Source: Escherichia coli (lineage in GTDB: Bacteria; Pseudomonadota; Gammaproteobacteria; Enterobacterales; Enterobacteriaceae). Taken from it: a DNA stretch of 64,000 nt. The position numbers and the translations under genes were made by a program. The notes beneath the pieces are model-generated. The model searched no databases. It had not been told where the DNA came from and was given only the letters and a program-made list of their open reading frames with translations. The DNA lies in assembly GCF_003334785.1 (NCBI RefSeq), contig NZ_QOWV01000016.1; one strand, written 5' to 3'. Each line of letters begins with the position of its first letter. The first letter of the stretch is position 1. This document shows positions 458 to 54,053 of this stretch, in pieces.

Positions 458-1066
458 ATGAAACTCGTCGGTAGCTACACCAGCCCGTTTGTACGCAAAC
501 TTTCTATTCTGTTGTTAGAAAAGGGCATAACTTTCGAATTTATTAATGAACTGCCCTATAACGCGGACAACGGCGTGGCGCAATTTAACCCGTTAGGAAA
601 AGTGCCGGTGCTGGTGACCGAAGAGGGCGAATGCTGGTTTGATTCGCCGATCATCGCTGAATATATTGAATTAATGAATGTCGCTCCGGCGATGTTGCCG
701 CGCGATCCGCTGGAGTCGTTGCGGGTGCGCAAAATTGAGGCACTGGCGGATGGCATTATGGATGCCGGGCTGGTATCGGTGCGTGAACAGGCGCGTCCAG
801 CGGCGCAGCAGTCTGAAGATGAATTGTTACGCCAGCGGGAGAAAATCAACCGCAGTCTGGATGTGCTGGAAGGATATCTGGTCGATGGCACACTCAAAAC
901 CGATACGGTCAATCTGGCGACTATCGCCATTGCCTGTGCCGTCGGATATCTCAATTTCCGCCGCGTTGCGCCAGGTTGGTGTGTCGACCGCCCACACTTA
1001 GTCAAACTGGTCGAAAACCTGTTTAGCCGCGAAAGTTTTGCTCGCACCGAACCGCCAAAGGCTTGA
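458..1066 (+). CDS. yibF: glutathione S-transferase-like protein
   Basis: 202-aa ORF in track, [28 protein letters not shown]...; GST N-terminal fold signature; position upstream of selA. Confidence 0.9.
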
Positions 1067-1163
1067 TGCGCGATATGTCCTCCTGACCCATCTCACGTTA
1101 CAATCCGTGGTTATGTTAAACGCCCTTCTCCGTGTGAGAGGGCCTTGATCAGCCAGGTTTCCT

Positions 1164-2555
1164 ATGACAACCGAAACGCGTTCCCTCTATAGTCAACTTC
1201 CGGCTATTGATCGCTTATTGCGCGATAGCTCCTTCCTTTCTTTGCGTGATACTTATGGTCACACCCGCGTGGTGGAATTGTTGCGTCAGATGCTCGACGA
1301 AGCGCGAGAAGTGATTCGTGGCAGCCAGACGCTGCCTGCGTGGTGTGAAAACTGGGCGCAAGAAGTCGATGCCCGGTTGACGAAAGAAGCGCAGAGCGCG
1401 CTGCGTCCGGTGATCAACCTGACGGGAACCGTGCTGCATACCAACCTTGGGCGAGCTTTACAGGCGGAAGCCGCGGTGGAAGCCGTTGCGCAGGCTATGC
1501 GTTCGCCAGTGACCCTCGAGTATGATCTGGACGACGCCGGACGCGGACATCGCGATCGGGCGCTGGCGCAGCTGCTGTGCCGTATTACGGGGGCGGAAGA
1601 TGCCTGTATCGTCAATAACAATGCGGCGGCGGTGTTATTGATGTTGGCGGCCACTGCCAGCGGAAAAGAGGTGGTGGTATCTCGCGGCGAACTGGTGGAG
1701 ATTGGCGGCGCGTTTCGTATTCCCGATGTTATGCGTCAGGCAGGCTGCACCCTACACGAAGTAGGGACCACCAACCGCACGCACGCGAATGATTATCGTC
1801 AGGCGGTGAATGAAAATACCGCACTGTTGATGAAAGTACATACCAGTAACTACAGCATTCAGGGGTTCACCAAAGCGATAGATGAAGCGGAACTGGTGGC
1901 GCTCGGCAAAGAGCTGGATGTTCCCGTAGTGACTGATTTAGGCAGTGGCTCGCTGGTCGATCTTAGCCAGTACGGTTTGCCGAAAGAGCCAATGCCGCAG
2001 GAGTTGATTGCGGCGGGCGTCAGTCTGGTGAGTTTCTCCGGCGACAAGTTGTTAGGCGGGCCGCAGGCAGGAATTATTGTTGGTAAAAAAGAGATGATCG
2101 CCCGCCTGCAAAGCCACCCGCTGAAGCGTGCATTACGCGCGGATAAAATGACCCTCGCGGCGCTGGAAGCCACGTTGCGTCTTTATTTACACCCTGAAGC
2201 TCTGAGTGAAAAATTACCGACCCTGCGCCTGCTTACCCGCAGCGCAGAGGTCATTCAAATCCAGGCACAACGTTTACAGGCCCCCCTTGCCGCACATTAC
2301 GGCGCGGAGTTTGCGGTACAGGTTATGCCATGTCTTTCGCAGATTGGCAGTGGTTCGCTGCCGGTTGATCGCCTGCCGAGCGCGGCATTAACGTTTACAC
2401 CCCATGATGGACGCGGTAGCCACCTTGAGTCATTAGCCGCCCGCTGGCGTGAATTGCCAGTGCCGGTGATTGGTCGTATTTATGACGGACGATTGTGGCT
2501 GGATTTACGCTGCCTTGAAGATGAGCAACGGTTTTTGGAGATGTTGTTGAAATGA
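1164..2555 (+). CDS. selA: L-seryl-tRNA(Sec) selenium transferase
   Basis: 463-aa ORF recognised as SelA; stop overlaps selB start (ATGA at 2552..2555). Confidence 0.95.
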
Positions 2556-4396
2556 TTATTGCGACTGCCGGACACGTTGACCACGGCAAAACAACCTTAT
2601 TGCAGGCGATTACTGGCGTAAATGCTGACCGTCTGCCGGAAGAAAAAAAGCGCGGCATGACCATCGATCTCGGCTATGCCTACTGGCCGCAGCCGGATGG
2701 TCGCGTGCCTGGTTTTATCGACGTTCCCGGTCATGAAAAGTTTCTTTCCAACATGCTGGCGGGCGTTGGTGGTATCGATCACGCGCTGTTGGTGGTGGCG
2801 TGCGATGACGGCGTGATGGCACAGACCCGTGAGCATCTGGCGATTTTGCAGCTGACCGGTAACCCGATGCTGACAGTGGCGCTGACCAAAGCCGATCGCG
2901 TGGACGAAGCGCGTGTTGATGAGGTTGAACGCCAGGTAAAGGAGGTTCTGCGGGAATACGGTTTTGCTGAGGCAAAACTGTTTATCACCGCAGCAACCGA
3001 AGGTCGGGGAATGGATGCCCTGCGCGAGCATCTGCTTCAGTTGCCGGAACGCGAGCACGCCAGCCAACATAGTTTCCGCCTCGCGATTGACCGCGCATTT
3101 ACCGTAAAAGGTGCCGGGCTGGTCGTCACCGGTACGGCGTTAAGCGGGGAAGTGAAGGTAGGCGATTCACTCTGGCTGACTGGTGTAAATAAACCGATGC
3201 GTGTACGTGCGCTGCATGCGCAAAACCAGCCAACAGAAACCGCCAATGCCGGGCAGCGTATCGCGCTTAACATCGCGGGTGATGCGGAAAAAGAGCAGAT
3301 TAACCGTGGCGACTGGCTGCTTGCCGATGTGCCGCCAGAGCCGTTCACACGGGTGATTGTCGAGCTTCAAACCCATACACCGCTGACCCAGTGGCAGCCG
3401 CTGCATATTCACCACGCCGCCAGCCACGTCACGGGACGCGTTTCACTGCTGGAAGATAACCTTGCTGAACTGGTCTTCGACACCCCGTTATGGCTGGCAG
3501 ATAACGACCGCCTGGTATTGCGCGATATCTCTGCCCGCAACACGCTGGCCGGAGCGCGCGTCGTGATGCTTAACCCGCCGCGTCGCGGTAAACGTAAGCC
3601 GGAATATCTGCAATGGCTGGCGTCTCTTGCACGGGCGCAGAGCGATGCCGATGCGTTATCTGTTCATCTGGAACGCGGCGCGGTTAACCTTGCGGATTTC
3701 GCCTGGGCGCGCCAGCTCAACGGCGAAGGGATGCGCGAATTGCTGCAACAGCCTGGTTATATTCAGGCTGGTTATAGCTTGTTGAATGCGCCGGTTGCCG
3801 CCCGCTGGCAGCGGAAAATTCTCGACACATTAGCGACTTATCATGAGCAACATCGCGATGAACCTGGCCCTGGGCGCGAACGTCTGCGACGTATGGCGTT
3901 GCCAATGGAAGATGAAGCGCTGGTACTGTTGCTGATTGAAAAGATGCGCGAAAGCGGCGACATCCACAGCCATCACGGCTGGCTGCATCTGCCAGATCAC
4001 AAAGCGGGCTTCAGCGAAGAGCAGCAGGCCATCTGGCAAAAAGCAGAGCCACTGTTTGGTGACGAACCGTGGTGGGTGCGTGACCTGGCAAAAGAGACGG
4101 GAACCGACGAGCAGGCAATGCGCCTGACTCTACGCCAGGCGGCGCAGCAAGGAATAATTACCGCGATCGTTAAAGATCGTTATTACCGTAACGATCGGAT
4201 TGTCGAGTTTGCCAATATGATCCGCGATCTCGATCAGGAGTGTGGTTCAACCTGCGCGGTGGATTTCCGCGATCGCTTAGGCGTAGGCCGAAAGCTGGCA
4301 ATTCAGATTCTGGAATATTTTGACCGCATTGGCTTTACGCGTCGTCGTGGAAATGATCATTTATTGCGCGACGCATTATTATTTCCGGAAAAATAA
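2552..4396 (+). CDS. selB: selenocysteine-specific translation elongation factor
   Basis: 614-aa ORF with N-terminal GTPase motifs [23 protein letters not shown]; translationally coupled to selA. Confidence 0.95.
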
Positions 4397-40128: not shown

Positions 40129-40362
40129 TCGCTAAATAATACAGCAACCTTTAATAATCTTCTGCTGAATAAAGATTATCTCATATATTAATTTTATGAG
40201 ATTTTTTTAGGATTATATCAAGGAGAAGAAACAAACTTATTAAGCTAGAATAGCCACGGGTGCTTGAGACTGTTTGTCTCAGGTATTCACCGAAAGGCAG
40301 ACAGAGAAAAGCCCCACCTGACTATAAATCAAAGTTTGTACTGACCCCAAAAAGTTGGACAG

Positions 40363-41214
40363 TTAAACACGAGGCATATAGGTCTGATTCCGATATTCAA
40401 TTGGAGTCAGACCTTTTAATTTCAGGCTAATTCTTCTGCTGTTGTAGTATTCAATATATTCCGTAACAGCATCCTTCAGTTCGCTTATATTACTGAACTC
40501 ATCAAGATAAAAACACTCCGACTTTAAGGTTCCAAAGAAACACTCCACCACAGCATTATCCAGACAATTGCCTTTTCTGGACATGCTTTGTTTAATACCA
40601 TGTTCTTTAAGGATATTTTGATATCTTCTCATACGATACTGCCATCCCTGGTCAGAGTGCAGAACAGGATGCTCGTGAGGATTAAGCTTTTTGAATGCCT
40701 GATCGAGCATATTCTCAACCATGTTCATCACTGGTCTTTCCGAAAGGCTGTAAGAAATAACTTCGTTGTTGAAGAGATCTATTACTGGAGACAAATACAG
40801 CTTGCGCCCATTGACTGCAAATTCAGTAACATCGGTAACCCACTTCTCGTTTGGCCGCGTAGCCTTGAAATCTCTTTGGAGAACATTAGGGGCGGTTTGC
40901 CCTACCTCTCCTCTGTAAGAGCGGTATCGCTTGACCTTAATCGCTGCTTTAAGTGAGAGGGTTCCCATCAGGCGCTGAACAGCTTTATGGTTAATCTGTT
41001 TCCCTTCTCGATGAAGAGACAGCGTTACCCTACGGTATCCGTATCGGCCTCTATTCTCGTGATAAATCTCACTAATACGCTTTTTAACGTCCGCATACTT
41101 GTCAGGCTTGCTGAGAGCCTTTAGATGATAATAAAACGTACTGCGCGGTATCTCCGCAGCCCTGAGAAGCTCATCAAGAGGATAAAACTGCCTTAGCTCG
41201 TTGAGTACTTTCAC
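40363..41214 (-). CDS. insK: IS150 transposase OrfB (DDE catalytic domain)
   Basis: 283-aa ORF recognised. Confidence 0.9.
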
Positions 41215-41732
41215 TTTTTCGTGGGATGAGCTAAGGCTTTCAGCTTTTTTAGATACATAAGCCGCGTTTCAAGAAATCGAACTTGCCTTTCAAGATCCTC
41301 AATGCGTCGGTCTTTTGACAGCTCCAATGCTGATGCCGCTTTTTCTGGATCAACTGATATTGCAATGTTTCTTTTGGTGCCAATCTTGAGCGCGCGTAAA
41401 CCAGCTTCTCCGCGCTCTTCATAGACCTTCAGCCACCTGGCTACAGAACCACTACCAGCAAGCATAAAGTGAGCAGCAGCCTGATTAAGGGACATGTGCT
41501 GCTCGATCACAGCTTTCACGACCTTAATACGCAACTCTGGATCAGCACTAACGCCTTTAGGTTTGGGAATTAAACCTTTTTCTCCATGTTTTTCATAGAG
41601 GGCAACCCATGTCCTGACCTGGGTTCGGGGGACACCAAAACGTGCCGAGATGATCCTGTAACCATCATCAGTTGTGAAGTAGTGATTCACGACTTCAAGG
41701 CGCTTTTCAAAAGGGTATTTTGGCTTTGACAT
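41211..41732 (-). CDS. insJ: IS150 OrfA (HTH DNA-binding)
   Basis: 173-aa ORF; ends ...[14 protein letters not shown] with the A AAA AAG frameshift heptamer at complement(41244..41250). Confidence 0.9.
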   Translation of the reverse strand: MSKPKYPFEKRLEVVNHYFTTDDGYRIISARFGVPRTQVRTWVALYEKHGEKGLIPKPKGVSADPELRIKVVKAVIEQHMSLNQAAAHFMLAGSGSVARWLKVYEERGEAGLRALKIGTKRNIAISVDPEKAASALELSKDRRIEDLERQVRFLETRLMYLKKLKALAHPTKK

Positions 41733-41811
41733 ATTAGGGGCTATTCCATTTCATCGTCCAACAAAATGGGTGCAGTACATACTCGTTGGAAATCAACACA
41801 GGAGGCTGGGA

Positions 41812-41964
41812 ATGCCGCAGAAATATAGATTACTTTCTTTAATAGTGATTTGTTTCACGCTTTTATTTTTCACCTGGATGATAAGAGATTCACTGTGTGA
41901 ATTGCATATTAAACAGGAGAGTTATGAGCTGGCGGCGTTTTTAGCCTGCAAATTGAAAGAGTAA
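41812..41964 (+). CDS. hokA: Hok-family type I toxin peptide (50 aa)
   Basis: MPQKYRLLSLIVICFTLLFFTWMIRDSLCELHIKQESYELAAFLACKLKE from ATG 41812 with SD aggagg 41800..41805; the overlapping mok-like frame (track ORF from 41770) begins inside the IS150 end. Confidence 0.85.
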   Translation: MPQKYRLLSLIVICFTLLFFTWMIRDSLCELHIKQESYELAAFLACKLKE

Positions 41965-42093
41965 GAGTCTTCGGCGGGAAATTATTCCCGCCTTACTTAC
42001 GGCGTTGCGCATTCTCATTGCACCCAAATTTATTCTTCACAAAAATAATAATAGATTTTATTACGCGATCGATTATTTATTTCCTGAAAACAA

Positions 42094-42123
42094 ATAAAAA
42101 AATCCCCGCCAAATGGCAGGGAT
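42094..42123 (-). terminator. rho-independent terminator of cspA
   Basis: On the minus strand, stem atccctgccatttggcggggat followed by a U7 run (plus-strand A-run 42095..42101). Confidence 0.8.
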
Positions 42124-42150
42124 CTTAGATTCTGTGCTTTTAAGCAGAGA

Positions 42151-42363
42151 TTACAGGCTGGTTACGTTACCAGCTGCCGGGCCTTTAGCGCCGCTTTCGA
42201 TGGTGAAGGACACTTTCTGACCTTCGTCCAGAGATTTGTAACCATCGTTCTGGATAGCAGAGAAGTGTACGAACACATCTTTAGAGCCATCGTCAGGAGT
42301 GATGAAGCCGAAGCCTTTGTCAGCGTTGAACCATTTTACGATACCAGCCATTTTACCGGACAT
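42151..42363 (-). CDS. cspA: major cold-shock protein
   Basis: [38 protein letters not shown]... 70 aa with RNP1/RNP2 motifs. Confidence 0.97.
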
Positions 42364-42505
42364 AGTGTATTACCTTTAATAATTAAGTGTGCCTTTCGGC
42401 GATATGGCGTGCTTTACAGATTTTGAAGCGTTAAAGGAATGTGCACTACGAGGGGTATCAACGATAACTCTTGAAGGGACTTGCCTTACTACACTGCTTT
42501 AATGG

Positions 42506-42559
42506 TCTGTACGTCAAACCGTTGATGTGCATTAAGCCACGCATTGGCGGGTGATGCAA
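42506..42559 (-). promoter_or_regulatory. cspA promoter (-35 TTGCAT, 17-bp spacer, -10 CTTAAT) and cold-box element at the start of the ~160-nt 5' UTR
   Basis: Minus-strand reading: ttgcat (complement 42554..42559), cttaat (complement 42531..42536), cold box tgacgtacaga (complement 42506..42516); AT-rich UP-like tract further upstream. Confidence 0.75.
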
Positions 42560-42643
42560 CAATTATTTTTCATATTTATGATTAATCGGTTGGAAAACGG
42601 TCCTGTCATCAGGACCGTAAACAGCAATAAAGTGGATAAAAGT

Positions 42644-42934
42644 CTATTCCATCAACTGCTTACTTAATGCCGGGTTGGCTTGAATCAAACGCATCAATTT
42701 TAGTTCGGCACTTGAAGGCTTCACGCGTCTGGATTCCCATTCCTTTACCATGGCGACTGATACGCCCAAAACCCGGGCGAAATCATCGATTTTTAATCCT
42801 GTCCCTTTTCGTAACTGCTCAATTTCGGTACAGGACGTTGTTCTGTGCGTCAGGGTAATTTTCTGCGTTTCATCTTTAAAAACAATCTGTTCCAGGCTGC
42901 TCAACAGCTCATGCATTGGATCTTTATATTCCAT
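42644..42934 (-). CDS. yiaG: XRE-family HTH transcriptional regulator
   Basis: 96-aa ORF with HTH GLKIDDFARVLGVSVAMVKEWESRR, recognised. Confidence 0.85.
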   Translation of the reverse strand: MEYKDPMHELLSSLEQIVFKDETQKITLTHRTTSCTEIEQLRKGTGLKIDDFARVLGVSVAMVKEWESRRVKPSSAELKLMRLIQANPALSKQLME

Positions 42935-43367
42935 TGAAAACTCCTCAAATCACACTGCGGGATCGTGAATTGCATCGAAGCTCATTAAGAATAGTCGGGA
43001 AAAGCAGACACAGCGGGGTGAAGTCAGGGCATGCTCTGGCTATGATTCGATTCAGCCTGTCATTTAGCGTGACTTATAGCCACCTAACGATCTGATAAAT
43101 GCCGATATATCTCTTACCACTCCTGTTTTGTAAAGATTTCGAAAATCTAACCTTCTGCGAAGGCGTAAATCTCTGGCTACAAAAAAGGCAACGGCACTAT
43201 CATTTTTTAACAATGAAACAACAAATTAACCTTGTTTCATTTTCTCCATGATTTTACCAGGAAGATTACGTAGAAAGGGTATCCTGCAAGCCTGTCCTGG
43301 ACTATCCTTGTCACGTCAGACACGCGTGTGTCGTTGTGCGCTTTTTTTGGGTGAAAGGAGTAAGAAA

Positions 43368-44078
43368 ATGGCGACAGGAAAGTCCTGCTCTCGCTGGTTT
43401 GCGCCTCTTGCGGCGTTATTAATGGTAGTTAGCCTGAGTGGGTGTTTTGATAAAGAAGGCGATCAGCGTAAAGCGTTTATCGACTTCCTGCAGAATACAG
43501 TGATGCGTAGCGGTGAACGTCTACCAACCCTGACTGCCGATCAGAAAAAACAGTTTGGTCCTTTTGTCTCTGATTACGCGATTCTGTATGGTTATTCTCA
43601 GCAGGTGAATCAGGCGATGGATTCCGGTCTGCGCCCGGTTGTAGACAGCGTTAACGCAATTCGCGTACCGCAGGATTACGTTACGCAAAGCGGTCCGCTG
43701 CGTGAAATGAACGGTTCGCTGGGTGTGCTGGCGCAACAACTGCAAAATGCGAAGTTGCAGGCCGATGCTGCGCACTCTGCGCTAAAACAGAGCGATGATT
43801 TGAAACCGGTCTTTGATCAGGCATTCACCAAAGTGGTAACGACGCCAGCTGATGCATTGCAACCGTTGATTCCGGCGGCACAAACTTTCACGCAACAACT
43901 GGTGATGGTTGGAGACTACATTGCTCAGCAAGGTACTCAGGTGAGCTTTGTCGCAAATGGCATCCAGTTCCCGACTTCACAGCAGGCAAGTGAATATAAC
44001 AAACTGATTGCGCCATTACCGGCACAGCATCAGGCGTTTAATCAGGCCTGGACTACAGCAGTTACTGCAACCCAATAA
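43368..44078 (+). CDS. yiaF: DUF3053-family lipoprotein
   Basis: MATGKSCSRWFAPLAALLMVVSLSGCFDK... (lipobox LSGC) from ATG 43368 with SD aaaggag; track's 40-codon 5' extension rejected. Confidence 0.85.
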   Translation: MATGKSCSRWFAPLAALLMVVSLSGCFDKEGDQRKAFIDFLQNTVMRSGERLPTLTADQKKQFGPFVSDYAILYGYSQQVNQAMDSGLRPVVDSVNAIRVPQDYVTQSGPLREMNGSLGVLAQQLQNAKLQADAAHSALKQSDDLKPVFDQAFTKVVTTPADALQPLIPAAQTFTQQLVMVGDYIAQQGTQVSFVANGIQFPTSQQASEYNKLIAPLPAQHQAFNQAWTTAVTATQ

Positions 44079-44084
44079 AGAGTA

Positions 44085-44109
44085 AAAGCCCGAGCGATTA
44101 TCGGGCTTT
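44085..44109. terminator. bidirectional hairpin between convergent yiaF and ghrB
   Basis: aaagcccgagcgattatcgggcttt: GC stem flanked by A-run on one side and T-run on the other. Confidence 0.6.
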
Positions 44110-44127
44110 ACTCTACGCAGTCGCGGC

Positions 44128-45102
44128 TTAGTCCGCGACGTGCGGATTCACACAGTTCTTCTCAACCTTTCCTTGTAACGCATCAATCAAATTATCCACG
44201 GCACAGGCGGCCATGCCATAACGCGTCTCATGGGTGGCAGATCCAATATGCGGTACTGCGACGACGTTGGCCATTGAGAGCAACGGCGAATCTACGGACA
44301 GTGGCTCTTGTTCGAAGACATCCAGCCCGGCAGCGTGAATTTCGCCTTTCTGCAATGCTGCGATCAGTGCATTTTCGTCAACCACCGGGCCACGTCCGGC
44401 ATTAATGAAAATGGCGGAGGATTTCATTTTGGCGAATTGTTCTGCGCCAAACAGATGATGCGTCTCATCAGTTAACGGCAGGATCAGGCAAACGAAATCT
44501 GACTCTTGTAACAGAGTATCCAAATCGCAGTAGCGGGCGTTGAAGCGTTCTTCTGCTTCTTTATGGTGGCGGCGCGCGTTATAGAGGATGGGCATGTTGA
44601 AGCCAAAGTGCGCACGTTGTGCCAGCGCCATGCCGATCCGTCCCATCCCGACAATGCCCAGTGTTTTATGGTGAACGTCAGTGCCGTACCAGTCCGGGCC
44701 TATGCTCGCGGTCCATTCGCCTGCTTTTACCCGTTCTGCTACCTCCACAACCCGACGAGCGGTAGACAACACCAGCGCCATCAGCGTATCGGCGACGGTT
44801 TCTGTTAATACGGTTGGCGTGTGCATCAGCAGAATTTTTCGGGCGGTAAGCGCATCGACATCAAAATTGTCATAGCCGACGGAGATCGTTGATGTGGCAC
44901 GCAGTTTCGGCATTTTTTCCAGCAATGCGGCATTTACATTCTCGTTTGAACCCAGTAAACCTTCAGCTTCGGCAAAAATTGCTGCATTTTGTTCGACGGT
45001 TTGTGGGCTGAGGTTTGCCACCTGGTGAACGGTGAAATGCTCTTGCAGGCGTTGCAGTAAATCATCAGGTAAGGCTTTGTAGAGGATAACGGACGGCTTC
45101 AT
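44128..45102 (-). CDS. ghrB: glyoxylate/hydroxypyruvate reductase B (2-ketogluconate reductase)
   Basis: Recognised N-terminus [19 protein letters not shown] at 45102 (324 codons); D-isomer 2-hydroxyacid dehydrogenase family. Confidence 0.9.
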
Positions 45103-45205
45103 GCTTCTCTCCATTCACTGATAAGGCGATCACCTTAGCCTGAAATATGATGAAGGAAAACTGAAGAATGCCAGGTGATTTCTGCATCACCTGGCATGAA
45201 AGGGA

Positions 45206-45865
45206 TTACAGCGGGCTTAAGGTAATTTCTACACGGCGGTTTTGCGCCTTACCTTCTGCGGTGCTGTTGCTGGCGATTGGGTTAGCCGGGCCAAGGCCCT
45301 GAGTACGGATGCGGCTGGCGTCCACGCCCTGGGTGATCAACGCGCTGGCAACGGAATCCGCACGTTGCTGGGAGAGACGCATGTTCAGGTCGTGACCACC
45401 CGTGCTGTCGGTATAACCAATCACGTTAACCGCCGTTTTCGGATACTCTTTCAGTACCATTGCCACGCCGGTCAGGGTGTTAGCGCCCGCCGGTTTCAGG
45501 GTCGCGCTGCTGCTGTCGAAGGTCACATTGTTCGGCATATTGAGGATAATGTTATCCCCGCTGCGGGTTACGCTAACACCAGTGCCGCGCATTTTGTCGC
45601 GCAGCTTCGCTTCCTGCACATCCATGTAATAACCAACGCCGCCGCCCAGAGCTGCGCCTGCTGCTGCGCCAATCAGCGCGCCTTTACCGCGATCTTTCTT
45701 CGAAGAAGAGAGCGCACCAATACCCGCGCCCACGAGAGAGCCCAGACCTGCGCCGATAGCAGATTTACCTGCTTCGCGTTCGCCGGTGTAAGGGTTAGTT
45801 GTGCAGCCAGATACCGCCAGAGCGCCACTCACTACGGCGGCAATAAGATAAACACGTTTCTTCAT
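45206..45865 (-). CDS. yiaD: OmpA-domain outer-membrane lipoprotein
   Basis: 219-aa ORF with lipobox AVSGC and C-terminal OmpA-like peptidoglycan-binding domain. Confidence 0.9.
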   Translation of the reverse strand: MKKRVYLIAAVVSGALAVSGCTTNPYTGEREAGKSAIGAGLGSLVGAGIGALSSSKKDRGKGALIGAAAGAALGGGVGYYMDVQEAKLRDKMRGTGVSVTRSGDNIILNMPNNVTFDSSSATLKPAGANTLTGVAMVLKEYPKTAVNVIGYTDSTGGHDLNMRLSQQRADSVASALITQGVDASRIRTQGLGPANPIASNSTAEGKAQNRRVEITLSPL

Positions 45866-46017
45866 TGTTAATCCTTAATAACCTTTTTATTCTTTGCCAC
45901 GGGTTCCGTGGCGGGAGATTATGCCGCGTGAACATGAAGATTATTCCTGGGAATACTCGGAAATTTGTAAGTAATATTTAACTGCTCAATACATCTAACC
46001 TTTCAGGAGTCTTCGGT

Positions 46018-48351
46018 TTGGCCAACTCATCCTCACGATATTCCGTTCTGACTGCCGCCCATTGGGGGCCCATGCTGGTTGAAACCGACGGCGAAACCGT
46101 GTTTAGCTCGCGTGGCGCGTTAGCCACAGGAATGGAAAACTCCTTGCAGAGCGCGGTTCGCGACCAGGTTCACAGCAATACGCGGGTACGATTTCCAATG
46201 GTGCGAAAAGGCTTTCTTGCGTCACCGGAAAACCCGCAAGGCATTCGTGGGCAGGATGAATTTGTTCGCGTGAGTTGGGATGAGGCGCTGGATCTTATTC
46301 ACCAACAACATAAACGCATTCGTGAGGCTTATGGTCCGGCATCGATTTTTGCTGGTTCCTACGGCTGGCGTTCAAACGGCGTGCTGCATAAGGCCTCGAC
46401 ATTATTACAACGCTATATGGCGCTGGCAGGCGGTTATACCGGGCATCTGGGGGATTATTCGACCGGCGCGGCACAGGCGATCATGCCGTATGTCGTGGGT
46501 GGTAGTGAAGTTTATCAACAGCAGACCAGTTGGCCGCTGGTGCTGGAACATAGCGATGTCGTGGTGCTGTGGAGTGCTAACCCACTCAATACGCTGAAAA
46601 TTGCGTGGAATGCATCCGATGAGCAGGGGCTTTCTTACTTTTCTGCACTGCGTGACAGCGGGAAAAAGCTGATCTGCATTGATCCAATGCGATCGGAAAC
46701 CGTCGATTTCTTTGGCGATAAAATGGAGTGGGTGGCACCGCACATGGGCACCGATGTTGCGCTGATGCTGGGGATCGCCCATACGCTGGTGGAAAATGGT
46801 TGGCACGACGAAGCGTTTCTGGCGCGTTGCACCACAGGTTATGCCGTCTTCGCCTCTTATTTGCTGGGCGAGAGTGACGGAATAGCGAAAACCGCCGAAT
46901 GGGCAGCAGAGATTTGTGGTGTTGGCGCAGCGAAAATCCGCGAGCTGGCGGCTATTTTCCACCAAAATACCACCATGCTGATGGCAGGCTGGGGAATGCA
47001 GCGCCAACAGTTTGGTGAGCAAAAACACTGGATGATCGTCACGCTGGCAGCAATGTTGGGGCAAATCGGCACACCCGGCGGCGGTTTTGGTCTTTCTTAC
47101 CATTTTGCCAATGGTGGTAACCCCACGCGGCGTTCTGCGGTGCTCTCTTCCATGCAGGGCAGCTTGCCGGGTGGCTGCGATGCGGTGGATAAAATCCCTG
47201 TTGCCCGCATTGTTGAAGCACTGGAAAACCCTGGTGGCGCATATCAACACAACGGTATGAACCGACATTTCCCGGATATTCGTTTTATCTGGTGGGCGGG
47301 CGGTGCCAACTTTACTCATCATCAGGATACCAATCGCCTGATCCGTGCCTGGCAAAAACCGGAGCTGGTGGTGATCTCTGAATGCTTCTGGACGGCGGCG
47401 GCAAAACACGCGGATATCGTTCTGCCTGCGACTACCTCTTTTGAGCGTAATGATCTCACCATGACCGGTGATTACAGTAATCAGCATCTGGTGCCGATGA
47501 AGCAAGTGGTGCCGCCACGCTATGAAGCGCGTAATGATTTTGATGTTTTTGCCGAGTTAAGTGAACGCTGGGAGAAGGGCGGTTATGCACGTTTTACGGA
47601 AGGAAAAAGTGAGCTGCAATGGCTGGAAACGTTTTATAACGTTGCCCGACAGCGCGGGGCAAGCCAGCAGGTTGAATTGCCGCCATTTGCTGAGTTCTGG
47701 CAAGCCAACCAGTTAATTGAGATGCCGGAAAACCCGGACAGCGAGCGGTTTATTCGCTTCGCTGATTTTTGCCGCGATCCGCTGGCGCATCCGTTAAAAA
47801 CCGCCAGCGGCAAGATTGAAATCTTCTCACAGCGTATTGCCGATTACGGTTACCCGGATTGCCCTGGGCATCCAATGTGGCTGGAGCCGGACGAATGGCA
47901 GGGCAATGCCGAACCAGAACAGTTGCAGGTACTTTCTGCCCATCCGGCGCACCGCCTGCACAGCCAGCTGAATTACAGTTCTCTGCGCGAATTGTACGCG
48001 GTGGCAAATCGTGAGCCTGTCACCATTCATCCTGACGATGCCCAGGAGCGCGGCATACAAGATGGCGATACTGTTCGGTTGTGGAACGCACGCGGGCAAA
48101 TTCTTGCCGGAGCGGTCATTAGCGAGGGAATTAAACCTGGCGTGATTTGCATTCACGAAGGGGCATGGCCGGATCTGGATTTAACCGCTGACGGTATTTG
48201 TAAAAACGGCGCAGTGAACGTGCTGACCAAAGATCTCCCCAGCTCGCGGCTGGGGAATGGCTGTGCGGGTAATACGGCGCTGGCATGGCTGGAAAAATAC
48301 AACGGTCCGGAACTGACACTTACAGCGTTTGAACCACCGGCCAGCTCATAA
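46018..48351 (+). CDS. bisC: biotin sulfoxide reductase (molybdopterin oxidoreductase)
   Basis: 777-codon ORF recognised; starts at TTG 46018 with SD aggag 46005..46009; 3' end overlaps yiaC by 32 bp. Confidence 0.9.
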
Positions 48352-48760
48352 TCCATGTGGGTAGTTGGGTTTCATCCTGCCATGCGCAATCGACAATGTG
48401 AAAACCCTGTGCCTGGTAAAAATTTATCGCCGGTTGATTTTTTTGATAAACCTCCAGCATCAGGTGGGGATGGCGCTGCTGCACATACTGCATCAGCGCC
48501 TTACCAATACCGCGCCTGACGGCCTTCGGTGCGACAAACATCGCTGCCAGAAATCGGCCTTCCATAATGCTGACAAAACCGAGAAGCTTACCGTCTTCTT
48601 CCCAGACCCAGTTTTGCGCGTTGGCAAGATAGGCATCCCGCACCAGCGGAATGCAGTCACGCCAGTAATTCGCTTTTATAAAGGGATGCCCCCAGGTTGT
48701 ACTTTCCAGCCACAGTTCGAGGATCGCGGGGAGTTCTGAACGTTGCGCTTCCCGAATCAT
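48320..48760 (-). CDS. yiaC: GNAT-family N-acetyltransferase
   Basis: 146-aa ORF recognised; start overlaps tag stop (ATGA). Confidence 0.85.
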
Positions 48761-49320
48761 GGTTTATTTCCCGGATAGCAACAGCAGCCAACCACATGAT
48801 CATTCACCAGCCCACATGCCTGCATAAAGGAGTAACAGATTGTGGTGCCGACAAACTTAAAACCACGTTTTTTCAGTGCCTTAGATAGGGCGTCGGAGGC
48901 GGACGTAGATGTGGGAATTTCGCTCAACGTTGTGGCTTGTGTCACCTGTGGCTGATGATTTACAAACGACCAGACAAAGTCGACAAACGGTTCGCCGTTC
49001 TGTTCCATTTGCAGGTACGCCCGCGCATTACCAATAATTGCCTGAATTTTCCCTCGATGGCGGATAATCCCGGCGTCCTGTACCAGTCTTTCGACATCCT
49101 CTTCCTGCATTGCTGCGACCTTCACCGGATCGAACTGATGAAAGCAGGCGCGATAGTTTTCGCGTTTTTTGAGGACGGTGATCCACGATAATCCAGCCTG
49201 CTGCCCTTCAAGGCAGATCATTTCGAACAGTTTTTTACTGTCAGTTTCAGGCACGCCCCACTCATTATCATGGTAGGCAATATAAAGCGGGTCCTGACTC
49301 ACCCAGCCGCAACGTTCCAT
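48757..49320 (-). CDS. tag: 3-methyladenine DNA glycosylase I
   Basis: Recognised Tag N-terminus MERCGWVSQDPLYIAYHDNEWGVP at 49320 (187 codons); the track's 79-codon 5' extension is rejected. Confidence 0.9.
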   Translation of the reverse strand: MERCGWVSQDPLYIAYHDNEWGVPETDSKKLFEMICLEGQQAGLSWITVLKKRENYRACFHQFDPVKVAAMQEEDVERLVQDAGIIRHRGKIQAIIGNARAYLQMEQNGEPFVDFVWSFVNHQPQVTQATTLSEIPTSTSASDALSKALKKRGFKFVGTTICYSFMQACGLVNDHVVGCCCYPGNKP

Positions 49321-49477
49321 ACTTTCCCTCGCTATGTACCCGATCGTAAAAATTTCAGCCGCTTTTCTTGACGCATCGGTGAAAAAGTCAATATTTAATA
49401 CAGGGCTACTATGCCCGATATCCTTCATACAATGACAATAATATTGCCGAATTCGGCTCTTCCCTGGAGTCGTGTTA

Positions 49478-50176
49478 ATGATCATAAAAAAAAGCGGTGG
49501 TCGCTGGCAGCTAAGCCTGCTGGCGAGCGTGGTAATCAGTGCCTTTTTTCTCAACACAGCTTACGCCTGGCAACAAGAATATATCGTTGATACGCAACCC
49601 GGACTTTCCACAGAGCGTTACACCTGGGATAGTGATCATCAACCTGATTACAACGATATTTTGTCGCAACGTATTCAAAGTAGCCAAAGGGCGCTGGGAC
49701 TGGAAGTCAATCTGGCGGAAGAAACCCCTGTGGATGTGACCAGCAGTATGAGTATGGGCTGGAATTTTCCTTTATATGAACAGGTTACAACCGGCCCGGT
49801 CGCGGCATTACATTACGATGGCACAACCACCTCGATGTATAACGAGTTTGGCGACAGTACTACCACGCTGACCGATCCGTTATGGCATGCCAGCGTGAGT
49901 ACCTTAGGCTGGCGTGTTGACTCCCGGCTTGGCGATCTCCGACCCTGGGCGCAAATCAGCTATAACCAGCAATTTGGCGAGAATATCTGGAAGGCGCAAT
50001 CAGGCCTGAGCCGGATGACGGCGACAAACCAGAACGGCAACTGGCTGGATGTCACCGTAGGCGCTGATATGTTGCTCAATCAAAATATTGCCGCCTATGC
50101 CGCGCTAACTCAGGCAGAAAATACCACTAATAATAGCGACTATCTGTATACGATGGGGGTTAGCGCCAGATTTTAA
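49478..50176 (+). CDS. yhjY: outer-membrane autotransporter beta-barrel domain protein
   Basis: 232-codon frame from ATG 49478 (SD ggag 49466..49469); signal peptide then barrel ending ...GVSARF. Confidence 0.85.
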   Translation: MIIKKSGGRWQLSLLASVVISAFFLNTAYAWQQEYIVDTQPGLSTERYTWDSDHQPDYNDILSQRIQSSQRALGLEVNLAEETPVDVTSSMSMGWNFPLYEQVTTGPVAALHYDGTTTSMYNEFGDSTTTLTDPLWHASVSTLGWRVDSRLGDLRPWAQISYNQQFGENIWKAQSGLSRMTATNQNGNWLDVTVGADMLLNQNIAAYAALTQAENTTNNSDYLYTMGVSARF

Positions 50177-50290
50177 CGTAACAGTCACAATTGAAACCAT
50201 TAAATAACAATAGTTGTGGCGATAGTGGGTGCTAACTTACCAAATAATAAATTTGGTGAATAATTGTCGCGTCATTCATTCCTGAACTAA

Positions 50291-50321
50291 GGCATTTCAT
50301 TCCGTTCTGATGGCATTTCAT
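50291..50321 (+). promoter_or_regulatory. direct repeat GGCATTTCAT-N11-GGCATTTCAT upstream of yhjX (probable LytTR-type YpdB site)
   Basis: Exact 10-bp repeats at 50291..50300 and 50312..50321, about 85 bp upstream of the yhjX ATG. Confidence 0.6.
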
Positions 50322-50404
50322 GCCGTTTTTCCCCAGGCATAAAGTGCACTTCGTTATGGTTGTCGGCAGAGATTTTTCCTTTTTATTACTGCAGGAATAC
50401 TGCC

Positions 50405-51613
50405 ATGACACCTTCAAATTATCAGCGTACCCGCTGGCTGACACTCATCGGTACTATCATTACCCAGTTTGCGCTGGGGTCGGTTTATACCTGGAGCCTG
50501 TTTAATGGCGCGCTTTCCGCCAAGCTGGATGCGCCGGTAAGCCAGGTCGCTTTCTCTTTCGGCTTGTTAAGTCTGGGGCTGGCAATTTCGTCTTCTGTTG
50601 CGGGCAAATTACAGGAACGTTTTGGCGTTAAACGCGTCACCATGGCTTCCGGCATTTTGCTGGGATTAGGCTTCTTCCTGACAGCGCATTCTGACAACCT
50701 GATGATGCTGTGGTTAAGCGCCGGTGTGCTGGTGGGACTGGCAGATGGCGCGGGTTATCTGCTGACGCTCTCTAACTGTGTGAAGTGGTTCCCGGAGCGT
50801 AAAGGTCTGATCTCCGCGTTCGCTATCGGTTCTTATGGTCTGGGTAGCCTGGGTTTCAAATTTATCGACACGCAGCTGCTGGAAACGGTCGGTCTGGAAA
50901 AAACCTTTGTGATTTGGGGAGCGATTGCGCTGTTGATGATTGTTTTCGGCGCAACGTTAATGAAAGACGCACCAAAACAGGAAGTGAAAACCAGCAATGG
51001 TGTGGTGGAGAAAGATTACACGCTGGCAGAGTCGATGCGTAAACCGCAGTACTGGATGTTAGCGGTAATGTTCCTGACCGCCTGCATGAGCGGCCTGTAC
51101 GTGATTGGGGTAGCGAAAGATATCGCCCAAAGTCTGGCACACCTTGATGTGGTTTCCGCAGCCAATGCAGTCACTGTTATTTCCATCGCCAACCTTTCAG
51201 GTCGTCTGGTGCTGGGTATTCTGTCTGACAAAATCGCCCGTATCCGTGTTATTACCATTGGTCAGGTGATATCGCTGGTGGGTATGGCGGCCCTGCTGTT
51301 TGCACCATTGAATGCAGTGACGTTCTTTGCAGCGATTGCCTGCGTGGCATTTAACTTTGGCGGCACTATTACCGTCTTTCCGTCACTGGTCAGTGAGTTC
51401 TTTGGCCTCAATAACCTGGCGAAAAACTACGGTGTGATTTATCTCGGTTTCGGTATCGGTAGCATTTGTGGTTCGATTATCGCCTCACTGTTTGGCGGCT
51501 TCTATGTGACCTTCTACGTGATTTTCGCCCTGCTGATTCTGTCATTGGCGCTTTCTACGACGATTCGTCAGCCAGAGCAGAAAATGTTGCGTGAGGCGCA
51601 TGGCTCCCTTTAA
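50405..51613 (+). CDS. yhjX: MFS transporter (oxalate/formate antiporter family)
   Basis: Recognised N-terminus MTPSNYQRTRWLTLIGTIITQFALGSVYTW at 50405 (402 codons). Confidence 0.9.
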   Translation: MTPSNYQRTRWLTLIGTIITQFALGSVYTWSLFNGALSAKLDAPVSQVAFSFGLLSLGLAISSSVAGKLQERFGVKRVTMASGILLGLGFFLTAHSDNLMMLWLSAGVLVGLADGAGYLLTLSNCVKWFPERKGLISAFAIGSYGLGSLGFKFIDTQLLETVGLEKTFVIWGAIALLMIVFGATLMKDAPKQEVKTSNGVVEKDYTLAESMRKPQYWMLAVMFLTACMSGLYVIGVAKDIAQSLAHLDVVSAANAVTVISIANLSGRLVLGILSDKIARIRVITIGQVISLVGMAALLFAPLNAVTFFAAIACVAFNFGGTITVFPSLVSEFFGLNNLAKNYGVIYLGFGIGSICGSIIASLFGGFYVTFYVIFALLILSLALSTTIRQPEQKMLREAHGSL

Positions 51614-51936
51614 TGCTCAGCCGCGAGCTACTGGGCTTCAGCTTCCGTGTGCATCAAACGCATCAACGAAATGTATAAACAATGACTCGTAAAATTTGGG
51701 CCAATTAACTGGCCCTTTTTACTGCTTTTTGTAACGCTAAAGTCTCTTTTCAAACTTGCATTTTTGTAAATTTGTGCTTCATGCACACTCTTTCCCCACA
51801 CTTTTTCCCTTTGCTGTGGTCTACTTATTCGCGCGTGTAGATTTTACTTATCTGACTACCTCCGCACTTTTTCCCTGCCGGGCCTGAAAAGCCACTAAGC
51901 AGGGTGTTATCACCTGTTTGTCCAGGGTTTGTTTGC

Positions 51937-53628
51937 ATGAGATACATCAAATCGATTACACAGCAGAAGCTGAGCTTTTTGCTTGCAATCTATATTGGCC
52001 TTTTTATGAATGGCGCGGTTTTTTACCGCCGCTTCGGCAGCTATGCGCACGATTTTACCGTCTGGAAAGGCATTTCTGCTGTTGTTGAACTGGCCGCCAC
52101 CGTACTGGTGACCTTCTTTTTACTACGTCTTCTTTCGCTGTTTGGCCGCCGCAGCTGGCGTATTCTGGCATCGCTGGTGGTGCTCTTTTCCGCAGGTGCC
52201 AGCTATTACATGACCTTCCTTAATGTGGTCATTGGTTATGGCATCATCGCTTCCGTCATGACCACCGATATCGACCTGTCAAAAGAAGTTGTTGGTCTGA
52301 ACTTTATTCTCTGGTTAATCGCCGTTAGTGCATTGCCTCTTATCCTTATCTGGAATAACCGCTGTCGCTACACCTTGCTCCGACAACTGCGAACCCCAGG
52401 GCAGCGTATTCGCAGCCTGGCGGTCGTCGTACTGGCGGGTATTATGGTTTGGGCACCGATTCGTTTGCTGGATATCCAGCAGAAGAAAGTGGAGAGGGCG
52501 ACCGGCGTTGATTTGCCGAGTTATGGCGGTGTCGTAGCGAACTCTTATCTGCCATCAAACTGGCTTTCTGCGTTGGGGCTGTATGCCTGGGCGCGGGTCG
52601 ATGAATCTTCCGATAATAATTCATTGCTTAATCCGGCGAAGAAATTCACTTATCAGGCACCGCAAAACGTTGATGACACTTATGTCGTGTTTATCATCGG
52701 TGAAACCACGCGTTGGGACCATATGGGTATTTTCGGCTATGAGCGTAATACCACGCCGAAACTGGCCCAGGAGAAAAATCTGGCGGCGTTCCGTGGTTAC
52801 TCCTGTGATACCGCAACCAAACTCTCACTGCGTTGCATGTTTGTACGTCAGGGGGGCGCGGAAGATAATCCGCAGCGCACATTAAAAGAACAGAACATTT
52901 TCGCGGTTCTGAAGCAGTTAGGATTCAGTTCTGACCTCTACGCTATGCAGAGCGAAATGTGGTTCTACAGCAACACGATGGCGGACAACATTGCTTATCG
53001 TGAGCAGATTGGTGCGGAGCCACGTAATCGTGGCAAGCCGGTAGATGATATGTTGCTGGTAGACGAAATGCAGCAATCGCTAGGGCGCAACCCGGATGGT
53101 AAGCATCTGATCATTCTGCATACCAAAGGTTCGCATTTTAACTACACCCAGCGTTATCCGCGTAGCTTCGCGCAGTGGAAGCCGGAATGTATTGGTGTTG
53201 ATAGCGGCTGTACCAAAGCGCAGATGATCAACTCCTATGACAACTCGGTGACCTATGTGGATCACTTTATCTCCAGCGTGATTGATCAGGTTCGCGATAA
53301 GAAAGCGATTGTGTTCTACGCAGCTGACCACGGTGAGTCAATTAATGAACGCGAGCACCTGCACGGCACGCCGCGTGAACTGGCACCGCCGGAGCAGTTC
53401 CGCGTACCGATGATGGTCTGGATGTCAGATAAATATCTGGAAAATCCGGCCAATGCGCAGGCGTTTGCGCAGCTGAAAAAAGAAGCCGACATGAAAGTGC
53501 CACGCCGTCACGTAGAGCTGTACGATACCATCATGGGTTGTCTTGGCTATACTTCACCGGATGGTGGAATTAACGAAAACAACAACTGGTGTCACATCCC
53601 GCAGGCAAAAGAGGCAGCGGCTAACTAA
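51937..53628 (+). CDS. eptB: Kdo2-lipid A phosphoethanolamine transferase
   Basis: Recognised N-terminus [26 protein letters not shown] at 51937 (563 codons); sulfatase-like periplasmic domain. Confidence 0.9.
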
Positions 53629-53679
53629 GCGGCCTGCTGACTTTCTCGCCGATCAAAAGGCATTTTGCTATTAAGGGAT

Positions 53680-53708
53680 TGACGAGGGCGTATCTGCGCA
53701 GTAAGATG
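53680..53708 (+). promoter_or_regulatory. sigma70 promoter of tRNA-Pro
   Basis: -35 ttgacg (53680..53685), 17-bp spacer, -10 taagat (53703..53708), GC-rich discriminator gcgcccc, tRNA 5' end 12 nt downstream. Confidence 0.75.
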
Positions 53709-53719
53709 CGCCCCGCATT

Positions 53720-54053
<334 letters not shown>

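Follow-up and report, generated by a model that had tools for sequence, protein, structure and literature searches.

An IS150 element without a target-site duplication replaces 38 bp of the hokA leader in Escherichia coli K-12

Results

In the window, a 64,000-nt stretch of an E. coli contig (NZ_QOWV01000016.1, assembly GCF_003334785.1), a complete IS150 interrupts the hokA leader and is not flanked by a target-site duplication. Judged by comparison with an uninterrupted locus, this element, which is the annotated IS150 of K-12, replaces 38 bp of the leader and appears not to be a primary insertion. The duplication is very probably absent because an IS150-associated local rearrangement removed these 38 bp, a point common to all serious models of its origin. 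The two junctions were never one target: 38 bp lay between them, and these are gone.

A complete IS150 with regular ends

The window corresponds to the glyS-hokA-cspA region of E. coli K-12, reversed. Its IS150 (40337..41779, minus strand) is 1443 bp long and shares 100% identity over this length with the mobile_genetic_element IS150 annotated at 3720633..3722075 in MG1655; the copy of E. coli HS is also the same, base for base. The tips read TGTACTG...CAGTACA. A repeat search and a comparison of the ends delimited inverted-repeat arms of about 31 nt, with IRR (TGTACTGACCCCAAAAAGTTGGAC..., 40337..40367, minus strand) at the window-left end and IRL (TGTACTGCACCCATTTTGTTGGAC..., 41749..41779, minus strand) at the window-right end.

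Two frames, both open and overlapping at 41211..41214, occupy the minus strand between the arms: insJ (orfA, 173 aa, 41211..41732, MG1655 b3557) and insK (orfB frame, encoding the DDE catalytic part, 40363..41214, MG1655 b3558). InsJ matches positions 1-89 of the NCBIfam model NF033516 (transpos_IS3), and InsK positions 93-369, the latter with 350 bits for a cut-off of 160. The heptamer A AAA AAG for the programmed -1 frameshift (41244..41250, minus strand) is read as codons CTA AAA AAG in the insJ frame, and the programmed frameshift also figures in the RefSeq annotation of an identical IS150 copy. An earlier note on this DNA had described an element of 1443 bp with intact insJ and insK and this heptamer, and the identity to the MG1655 element bears this out. 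In sequence, termini, insJ/insK, heptamer and site between sokA' and mokA', nothing differs between the two copies.

The element has the size of about 1.4 kb and the imperfect 5'-TG...CA-3' inverted repeats of the IS3 family, its orfA/orfB frameshift and its type of DDE transposase. The target duplication of 3 bp (rarely 4-5 bp) is missing, and this is the sole trait in which the K-12 and window IS150 is atypical of the family. It is IS150 by all defining traits but the duplication, and its membership of the family stands, because a duplication marks an insertion event and not an element. Its ends are correctly placed, and it appears to be functional.

The flanks read ...ATCAAAGTT-IS-TACTCGTTGG..., that is GTT on the left versus TAC on the right, and no direct repeat of 3 or 4 bp is present, as the earlier note had reported. 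A 3-bp match occurs by chance with a probability of 1/64, so that a missing repeat is by itself no statistical signal. At hokA it matters because all the other IS150 copies inspected have a duplication. Five copies with identical termini are bordered by clean 3-bp duplications: AAG twice (strain T2, and ST131 for either orientation of the element), TAC (an F-type plasmid, for which the F plasmid itself provides the uninterrupted site with a single TAC), and ACC and AGC (on two other plasmids, from a PLSDB search). Duplications of 5 bp, AAGTG, were also seen at IS150 copies. Ordinary IS150 insertions in the long-term evolution experiment leave 3-bp repeats (PMC11708052).

The earlier note had considered that a boundary might be misplaced by 1-2 bp. 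Alignment to the IS150 reference left the termini where they were, in agreement with the MG1655 annotation and with the five cleanly duplicated copies, and this possibility is thereby refuted. As GTAC is palindromic within both tips, a pseudo-repeat GTA can be drawn by shifting the boundary; the tips are fixed by the empty site and the five duplicated copies.

The uninterrupted leader is 38 bp longer

A query in which the left and right flanks, 400 bp each, were joined was searched in 5,426 complete E. coli genomes. Directly joined flanks without an IS were found in none of them, and the best match already fell into two pieces. The two halves occurred together in 2,831 genomes, and in every one of these the distance between them exceeded that of the query by 38-42 bp.

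One strain with an empty site, EcN_Sk, shares 99.4-99.98% identity with the window over 40 kb and shows no substitution in the 1,170 bp (650 + 520) immediately flanking the element. Its empty site reads ATCAAAGT-GAGGCCCCTCTATGCATAGACACCATAAGGTTAGCCTC-T-TACTCG, with 38 bp (GAGGC...GCCTC) at the place where IS150 sits in K-12. In the uninterrupted leader, 38 bp separate the left junction (after ATCAAAGT-T) from the right junction (before TACTCG). The lost segment is stem-loop three of the hokA mRNA leader, in which the mokA start codon and the Sok target lie.

The comparison with an uninterrupted hokA locus, which the earlier note had proposed, proved decisive and revealed a loss which that note had not foreseen. 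It also refutes drift of the flanks, another of its suggestions, as the main cause: no base differs in 650 + 520 bp from the empty-site relative, but 38 bp are missing. In common with the class 'IS150-del', the locus has 38 bp missing directly beside one IS end relative to EcN_Sk and no duplication; in the genomes searched, the deletion never occurs without the IS.

Two short features border the element. The triplet TAC abutting IRL (41780..41782, plus strand) is the one that a same-orientation IS150 has duplicated at the homologous point of the hok leader of an F-type plasmid. On the other side, a single T (40336..40336, plus strand) separates IRR from the hokA leader; the phylogroup F version of the arrangement has G here, and the MG1655 annotation assigns the base to no feature. 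This T is at most the one base that could be attributed to drift.

State of the hokA/sokA/mokA locus

The 5' part of the hokA mRNA leader, comprising its first two stem-loops, lies at 40258..40335 (plus strand) and is cut by the IS. The Rfam model RF01794 scores 70 bits there and is sound only to AAAGU, versus 119 bits on the intact EcN_Sk locus; the third stem-loop is replaced by IS sequence. On the opposite strand, 40301..40335 (minus strand) is a remnant of sokA, the 3' part of the antisense RNA gene, which is a pseudogene in MG1655 (b4614, 3722077..3722111). Beyond IRL, the 3' part of the leader forms a mokA remnant (41780..41811, plus strand) whose start codon was lost with the 38 bp; it corresponds to the MG1655 mokA pseudogene (3720448..3720632) and is intact in EcN_Sk. 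In the MG1655 annotation the mokA and sokA pseudogenes abut IS150, with one base (window 40336) left over. The hokA toxin ORF (41812..41964, plus strand, 50 aa) is intact by its translation and matches the NCBIfam HokA equivalog NF007290 with 129.7 bits.

The window thus keeps the Hok-family toxin ORF and lacks the remainder of a hok/sok system, namely a complete leader with the mok start and the Sok-target stem-loop, and most of the sokA gene. Chromosomal hok/sok loci of K-12 are reportedly inactivated by IS elements, and hokA is likewise disrupted by IS150, near but outside the hok frame. As K-12 hokA is without the 38 bp besides carrying the IS, removal of IS150 would not restore hokA/sokA/mokA. 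A full-text literature search for hokA and IS150 together gave nothing relevant.

IS150 arrangements at hokA across E. coli

Exact junction queries were run against the 5,426 complete E. coli genomes; counts given below as 'about' are extrapolated from samples of 30-60 listed matches. The K-12 right junction, IRL-TACTCG, is present in 1,575 of the 5,426 genomes and the K-12 left junction in about 1,440; the deleted arrangement is common to some 1,500 genomes.

In about 1,000 of the 5,426 genomes IS150 lies 5' of an intact stem-loop, mostly in the opposite orientation and with an AAG or AAGTG duplication. The forward form ATCAAAG-(IRL>IRR)-AAGTGAGGC, with an AAG duplication, accounts for about 700 genomes. 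A second forward form, bordered by ATCAAAGTG on the left and AAGTGAGGC on the right, has the 5-bp AAGTG duplication and is found in about 300, HUM3355 and IAI39 being two of them. In about 100 genomes, mostly ST131, IS150 is reversed and sits at the AAG duplication of the first form.

The form ATCAAAGTG-(IRR<IRL)-TACTCG, which is the K-12 arrangement with G in place of the odd T, was found in at least 82 phylogroup F genomes (SMS-3-5 and STEFF_1 among them). Two single genomes complete the picture: VREC0864 carries an ISKpn8-like relative, 5.3% divergent and in forward orientation, between the ATCAAAGTG and TACTCG junctions, and C325 has a footprint allele, in which TGTACTGC is left behind and no IS is present. 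On the left, the reversed, deleted alleles and the forward AAGTG allele share one junction, at a single phosphodiester.

Junctions at hokA were found in 2,536 of the 2,865 genomes that bear IS150, and K-12 has a single copy, at hokA. For these two reasons the hokA copy can be regarded as the resident IS150 of the species.

Several genomes carry related alleles. Within phylogroup F, IAI39 has a forward IS150, an intact stem-loop and the AAGTG duplication, whereas SMS-3-5 and STEFF_1 have a reversed IS150 and the 38-bp deletion (AAAGTG-IRR..IRL-TACTCG). The IS150 of these three strains is identical over all 1443 bp and departs in each from that of K-12 at 17 shared positions; their glyS protein is the same. 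A parallel pair exists in phylogroup A between HUM3355 (forward, intact) and K-12, whose IS150 copies differ by 1 base. Two ST131 genomes whose flanks do not differ (0/900 and 0/1170) both carry IS150 at one AAG duplication, the one copy being reversed relative to the other, and it follows from this pair that a precise, in-place reversal of IS150 occurs in nature. The spacing of SNPs around the IS was tried as an indicator of a tract shared by K-12 and phylogroup F; the leader is conserved in all strains, so that it was uninformative.

The F-type plasmid has its IS150 at the homologous TAC, a single base past the 3' side of the stem-loop; the IRL of this copy faces hok, its orientation is that of the copy in the window, and TAC is duplicated. 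Because this duplication is clean, TAC is a genuine IS150 target in the present orientation. The PLSDB search yielded no second plasmid with a TAC junction. Candidate precursors in the same orientation as the K-12 copy are of the TAC type only in this plasmid hok paralogue, and of the AAG-site type in ST131; the common neighbouring allele has the opposite orientation. The junction searches detected no simple TAC insertion in K-12-like genomes and no chromosomal precursor or intermediate.

Discussion

A proposed local rearrangement of the resident copy

The history that we tentatively favour is a local, IS150-mediated rearrangement of the resident copy, in which a second end-joining at TAC was followed by loss of the old copy and the spacer. 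An older resident IS150, oriented the other way and bordered by an AAG or AAGTG duplication, would have lain immediately 5' of the stem-loop. A second IS150 joining would then have taken place in inverted orientation at TAC, just 3' of the stem-loop and 41-46 bp away, either as a copy re-inserted nearby or by an inversion-type intramolecular transposition (from an IS dimer). Transposition in the IS3 family is of the copy-out/paste-in type (PMC11708052), and because of this a true intramolecular inversion would need an IS dimer or a nearby re-insertion.

Either route would produce an inverted pair of 1.4-kb repeats only 40-odd bp apart, which should be unstable. The pair would collapse by deletion between short direct repeats contributed by the IS tips (T-N-TGTACTG), and the deletion would take the old copy and the spacer, leaving one reversed copy flanked by AAAGT(G/T) and TAC. 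Everything that follows the two junctions at two sites, namely the inverted pair and its collapse, we infer; the junction search found no chromosome with IRR beside the TAC side of an intact hokA stem-loop.

In the inversion variant of this history, the intermediate would be ...AAAGTG-(IS>)-GTAAGAGGC...GCCTCACTT-(IS<)-TACTCG, with the imperfect repeats TGTGTACTG and TTTGTACTG. A crossover within TGTACTG would give AAAGTG-IRR, as in phylogroup F, and one placed one base left would give AAAGTT-IRR, as in K-12. The variant predicts beside IRR either G, from the left flank, or T, from the complement of the AAG beside the old IRR; G is found in phylogroup F and T in K-12. It is the only model that gives the T at 40336 with no additional mutation, though the argument hangs on a single base. 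The forward, deleted allele of VREC0864 would be the expected sibling product of deletion type.

The IS variant shared by the forward and reversed alleles of phylogroup F is suggestive of a change in situ; a new insertion would carry the same variant. The empty site of EcN_Sk, on a K-12-like haplotype, fits a de novo insertion equally well.

Other origins of the junctions

It is less likely that IS150 inserted de novo in its present orientation, at TAC (duplicating that triplet) or at AAG/GTG of the empty leader, and that an IS150-mediated adjacent deletion of about 41 bp then took the stem-loop and one copy of the duplication. Insertion-plus-deletion is a frequent class for IS150: in the long-term evolution experiment it made up 14 of 68 IS150 events, spanned 14 bp to 48.9 kb, never showed a duplication, and was explained in all 14 cases by an adjacent deletion after an earlier insertion (PMC11708052). 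A simple TAC-site insertion exists on the plasmid, a same-orientation AAG-site insertion in ST131, and an empty site on the K-12-like haplotype. However, the deletion must have stopped, independently in phylogroups A and F, at the very phosphodiester of the forward allele's left junction, and a donor copy is needed elsewhere, yet K-12 has one copy. The T at 40336 does not line up with the ancestral AAAGTG and would call for an additional mutation, and a chromosomal precursor did not turn up in the genomes searched.

The recombination between two IS150 copies that the earlier note had put forward takes a different course according to where the second copy lay. A distant copy, with a large inversion, is rejected, since the order glyS-hokA-cspA is kept and K-12 is single-copy. 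Two copies or joinings flanking the 38-bp stem-loop do fit the junctions. Made local in this way, the proposal becomes homologous recombination between two direct copies, at AAG/AAGTG and at TAC, both in the present orientation, with deletion of one copy and the spacer. Both sites have been used in that orientation (AAG in ST131, TAC on the plasmid) and the product, ATCAAAG(TG)-IS-TACTCG, is the phylogroup F arrangement; but two independent insertions 46 bp apart would be needed beforehand, no genome with a tandem pair was seen, and the T at 40336 is left unexplained, which makes this course improbable. Very improbable is a one-step insertion with deletion, in which the two IS ends were joined in a single event to separate points with 38 bp between them, or to a break that already existed, and a duplication was never made. 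The same two phosphodiesters have been used in either IS orientation and by a relative about 5% divergent (STEFF/SMS-3-5 and VREC0864), and single-step insertion-deletion events have been proposed for IS5 and IS481 (Ngan et al.). Against it, the polarity of the stagger is, by our own geometric reasoning, wrong for normal DDE strand transfer, bridging by a cruciform is unlikely given the low stability of the stem-loop as DNA (-4.6 kcal/mol, z = -1.1), and all IS150 cases in the evolution experiment were two-step (PMC11708052). It is hardly credible, finally, that the insertion was an ordinary one and that point mutations erased its 3-bp duplication, or that its boundary is off by 1-2 bp: a G-to-T change at 40336 is the only one that could be invoked, whereas the empty site has 38 bp that the window lacks, 1170 bp of flank carry no substitution, and the termini agree with the annotation and the five duplicated copies.

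Targeting of a cruciform or hairpin was considered and rejected on the weak DNA fold (-4.6 kcal/mol, z = -1.1) and a misfit of strand polarity. An IR-like sequence in the hokA leader is a weak lead as a target cue: the best ungapped match between IRR and the leader is 22/40, which 30 of 2000 shuffles reached, and it is misplaced for IR-targeted insertion.

Relation to known rearrangements

The adjacent deletions of the evolution experiment resemble the hokA locus in that an IS150 is bordered by a deletion and has no duplication (PMC11708052). The hokA deletion differs from them in being very small (38 bp, or 43 bp with the duplication copy) and old, and its IS150 is reversed relative to a widespread neighbouring allele. 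These differences point to replacement or flipping of a resident copy rather than to erosion of its flank.

For IS911 and IS3-family elements, IR-targeted insertion and IS dimers have reportedly been described, and IS150 itself is said to form circles and linear forms. With dimers and IR targeting, a new copy arrives next to or near the resident one and the junctions rearrange, which would explain both local re-insertion and a change of orientation; at hokA, in contrast, no IS150 dimer or inverted pair was found in any genome.

In E. coli, long inverted repeats that are separated by only a short spacer are not stable, and they are resolved by deletions whose end points lie in short direct repeats. 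Tn10 and Tn5, composite transposons whose IS arms are inverted, undergo palindrome-stimulated deletion and nearly precise excision in this way. At hokA the short repeats would be the 7-bp tips TGTACTG. Unlike in Tn10 and Tn5, the arms would be two whole IS150 copies, one of which would have survived intact.

What the hokA arrangement means

The missing duplication is real, explained and ordinary for a K-12 window, the element and the type of event both being already known. IS copies that lack a duplication through adjacent deletion or IS-IS recombination are a documented class, which includes IS150 (PMC11708052). For the window itself the finding has little significance, since it concerns the annotated K-12 IS150 and an event of that class. 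This copy will be misread by programs that rely on duplications to date or classify IS insertions.

Mildly new, as far as we have checked, are the parallel reversed and deleted alleles, the in-place flip in ST131 and the repeated use of the hok leader by IS150-family elements. A broader reading, possible but doubtful at present, is that IS150 reproducibly reverses in place, with or without loss of the spacer, when an inverted copy lands near the resident one and the pair collapses through the 7-bp tips. Such reversals would have arisen at hokA on separate occasions in phylogroup A (K-12), phylogroup F and, with no deletion, ST131. If so, IS150 would have its ancestral 'home' in E. coli at the hokA leader, and IS150-family elements would use this leader repeatedly as a target, on chromosomes as well as on plasmids. 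The alleles described here suggest that this leader holds the species' resident IS150 in several interconvertible arrangements, in which case hokA would be a convenient natural system for the study of local rearrangements by IS3-family elements.

Orientation, duplication and excision of IS150 in the hokA leader

Two strains of one clone, ST131 strains 5506 (L018) and 2019_APHA (L011), share a single AAG duplication in the hokA leader, at which IS150 stands in opposite orientations. The flanks around the element are identical in the two strains. Judged from these sequences, the pair looks like the outcome of a precise, in-place flip of the IS. The reversed junction, in which the left terminal inverted repeat (IRL) is followed by AAGTGAGGC, is common to about 100 genomes, a number extrapolated from the junction matches listed among 5,426 complete E. 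coli genomes.

In HUM3355 (L004) and IAI39 (L017), the direct repeat at the two IS150 junctions is 5 bp long (AAGTG) rather than the customary 3 bp. This allele is probably old, because it is found in both phylogroups A and F, the IS variants of which differ by 1.2%. Alternatively, the repeat could be the AAG allele to which TG was added by slippage at ...AAAG-TG-TGTACTG.

The hokA leader of C325 (L008, NZ_CP124819.1) contains no IS and reads ATCAAAGTG-TGTACTGC-CCCTCTATGC, AGGC being replaced by eight bases of the IRL tip of IS150. This allele is the footprint of a nearly precise excision, compatible with a 2-bp GC microhomology. It was present in about 1 of 60 junction matches sampled.

Other elements at the site

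Inspection of strain VREC0864 (L006, NZ_LR536431.1) revealed, at 1012..2563, an ISKpn8-like relative of IS150 in forward orientation, which differs from IS150 at 77 of 1443 bp. Its junctions, ATCAAAGTG and TACTCG, are exactly those of the reversed IS150 of phylogroup F, and the 38-bp loss is identical.

The IS150 resident in hokA has itself been interrupted by IS1 twice, independently. The HUM3355 insertion (L004, about 3436..4213) lies within IRL and is flanked by a 9-bp duplication, GATGAAATG; the other, in the reversed IS150 of ST131 (L011), lies about 85 bp from the tip of the right terminal inverted repeat.

The hokA locus and its surroundings

Rfam RF01794, the 'sok antitoxin' family, corresponds over 157 nt to hok mRNA leader sequence in the sense orientation and not to the antisense Sok RNA; its matches lie at 622..773 of the intact, IS-free locus L001 and at 40258..40335 of the window. 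As a label for annotation, the family name misleads. The hokA start region of ST131 (L011, L018) reads GGGATGCCG versus GGGAATGCCG, one base being deleted between the Shine-Dalgarno sequence and the hokA ATG, directly upstream of the latter. In some strains an additional yidD-like gene, about 370 bp long, stands between hokA and cspA on the downstream side of the IS150 site (979..1350 in YL03, L013, NZ_CP093548.1; also in GF4-3, H40).

Relative to EcN_Sk (L009), a near-identical strain with an empty site, the window shows 74 differences across the 12 kb that lie right of hokA (41780..53885), versus only 13 in 14 kb to its left and two in the next 8 kb. The excess on the cspA-eptB side looks, from the distribution of these differences, like a recombination patch.

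Plasmid hok leaders

Interruption by IS150 was also observed in plasmid hok leaders (L010, NZ_JBUXMH010000002.1; L016, pLR-62-2_2). One of the insertions hit TAC on the 3′ side of the Sok-target stem-loop; another, with the duplication AGC, is at the extreme 5′ end of the hok mRNA. IS150 seems to strike hok leaders repeatedly.
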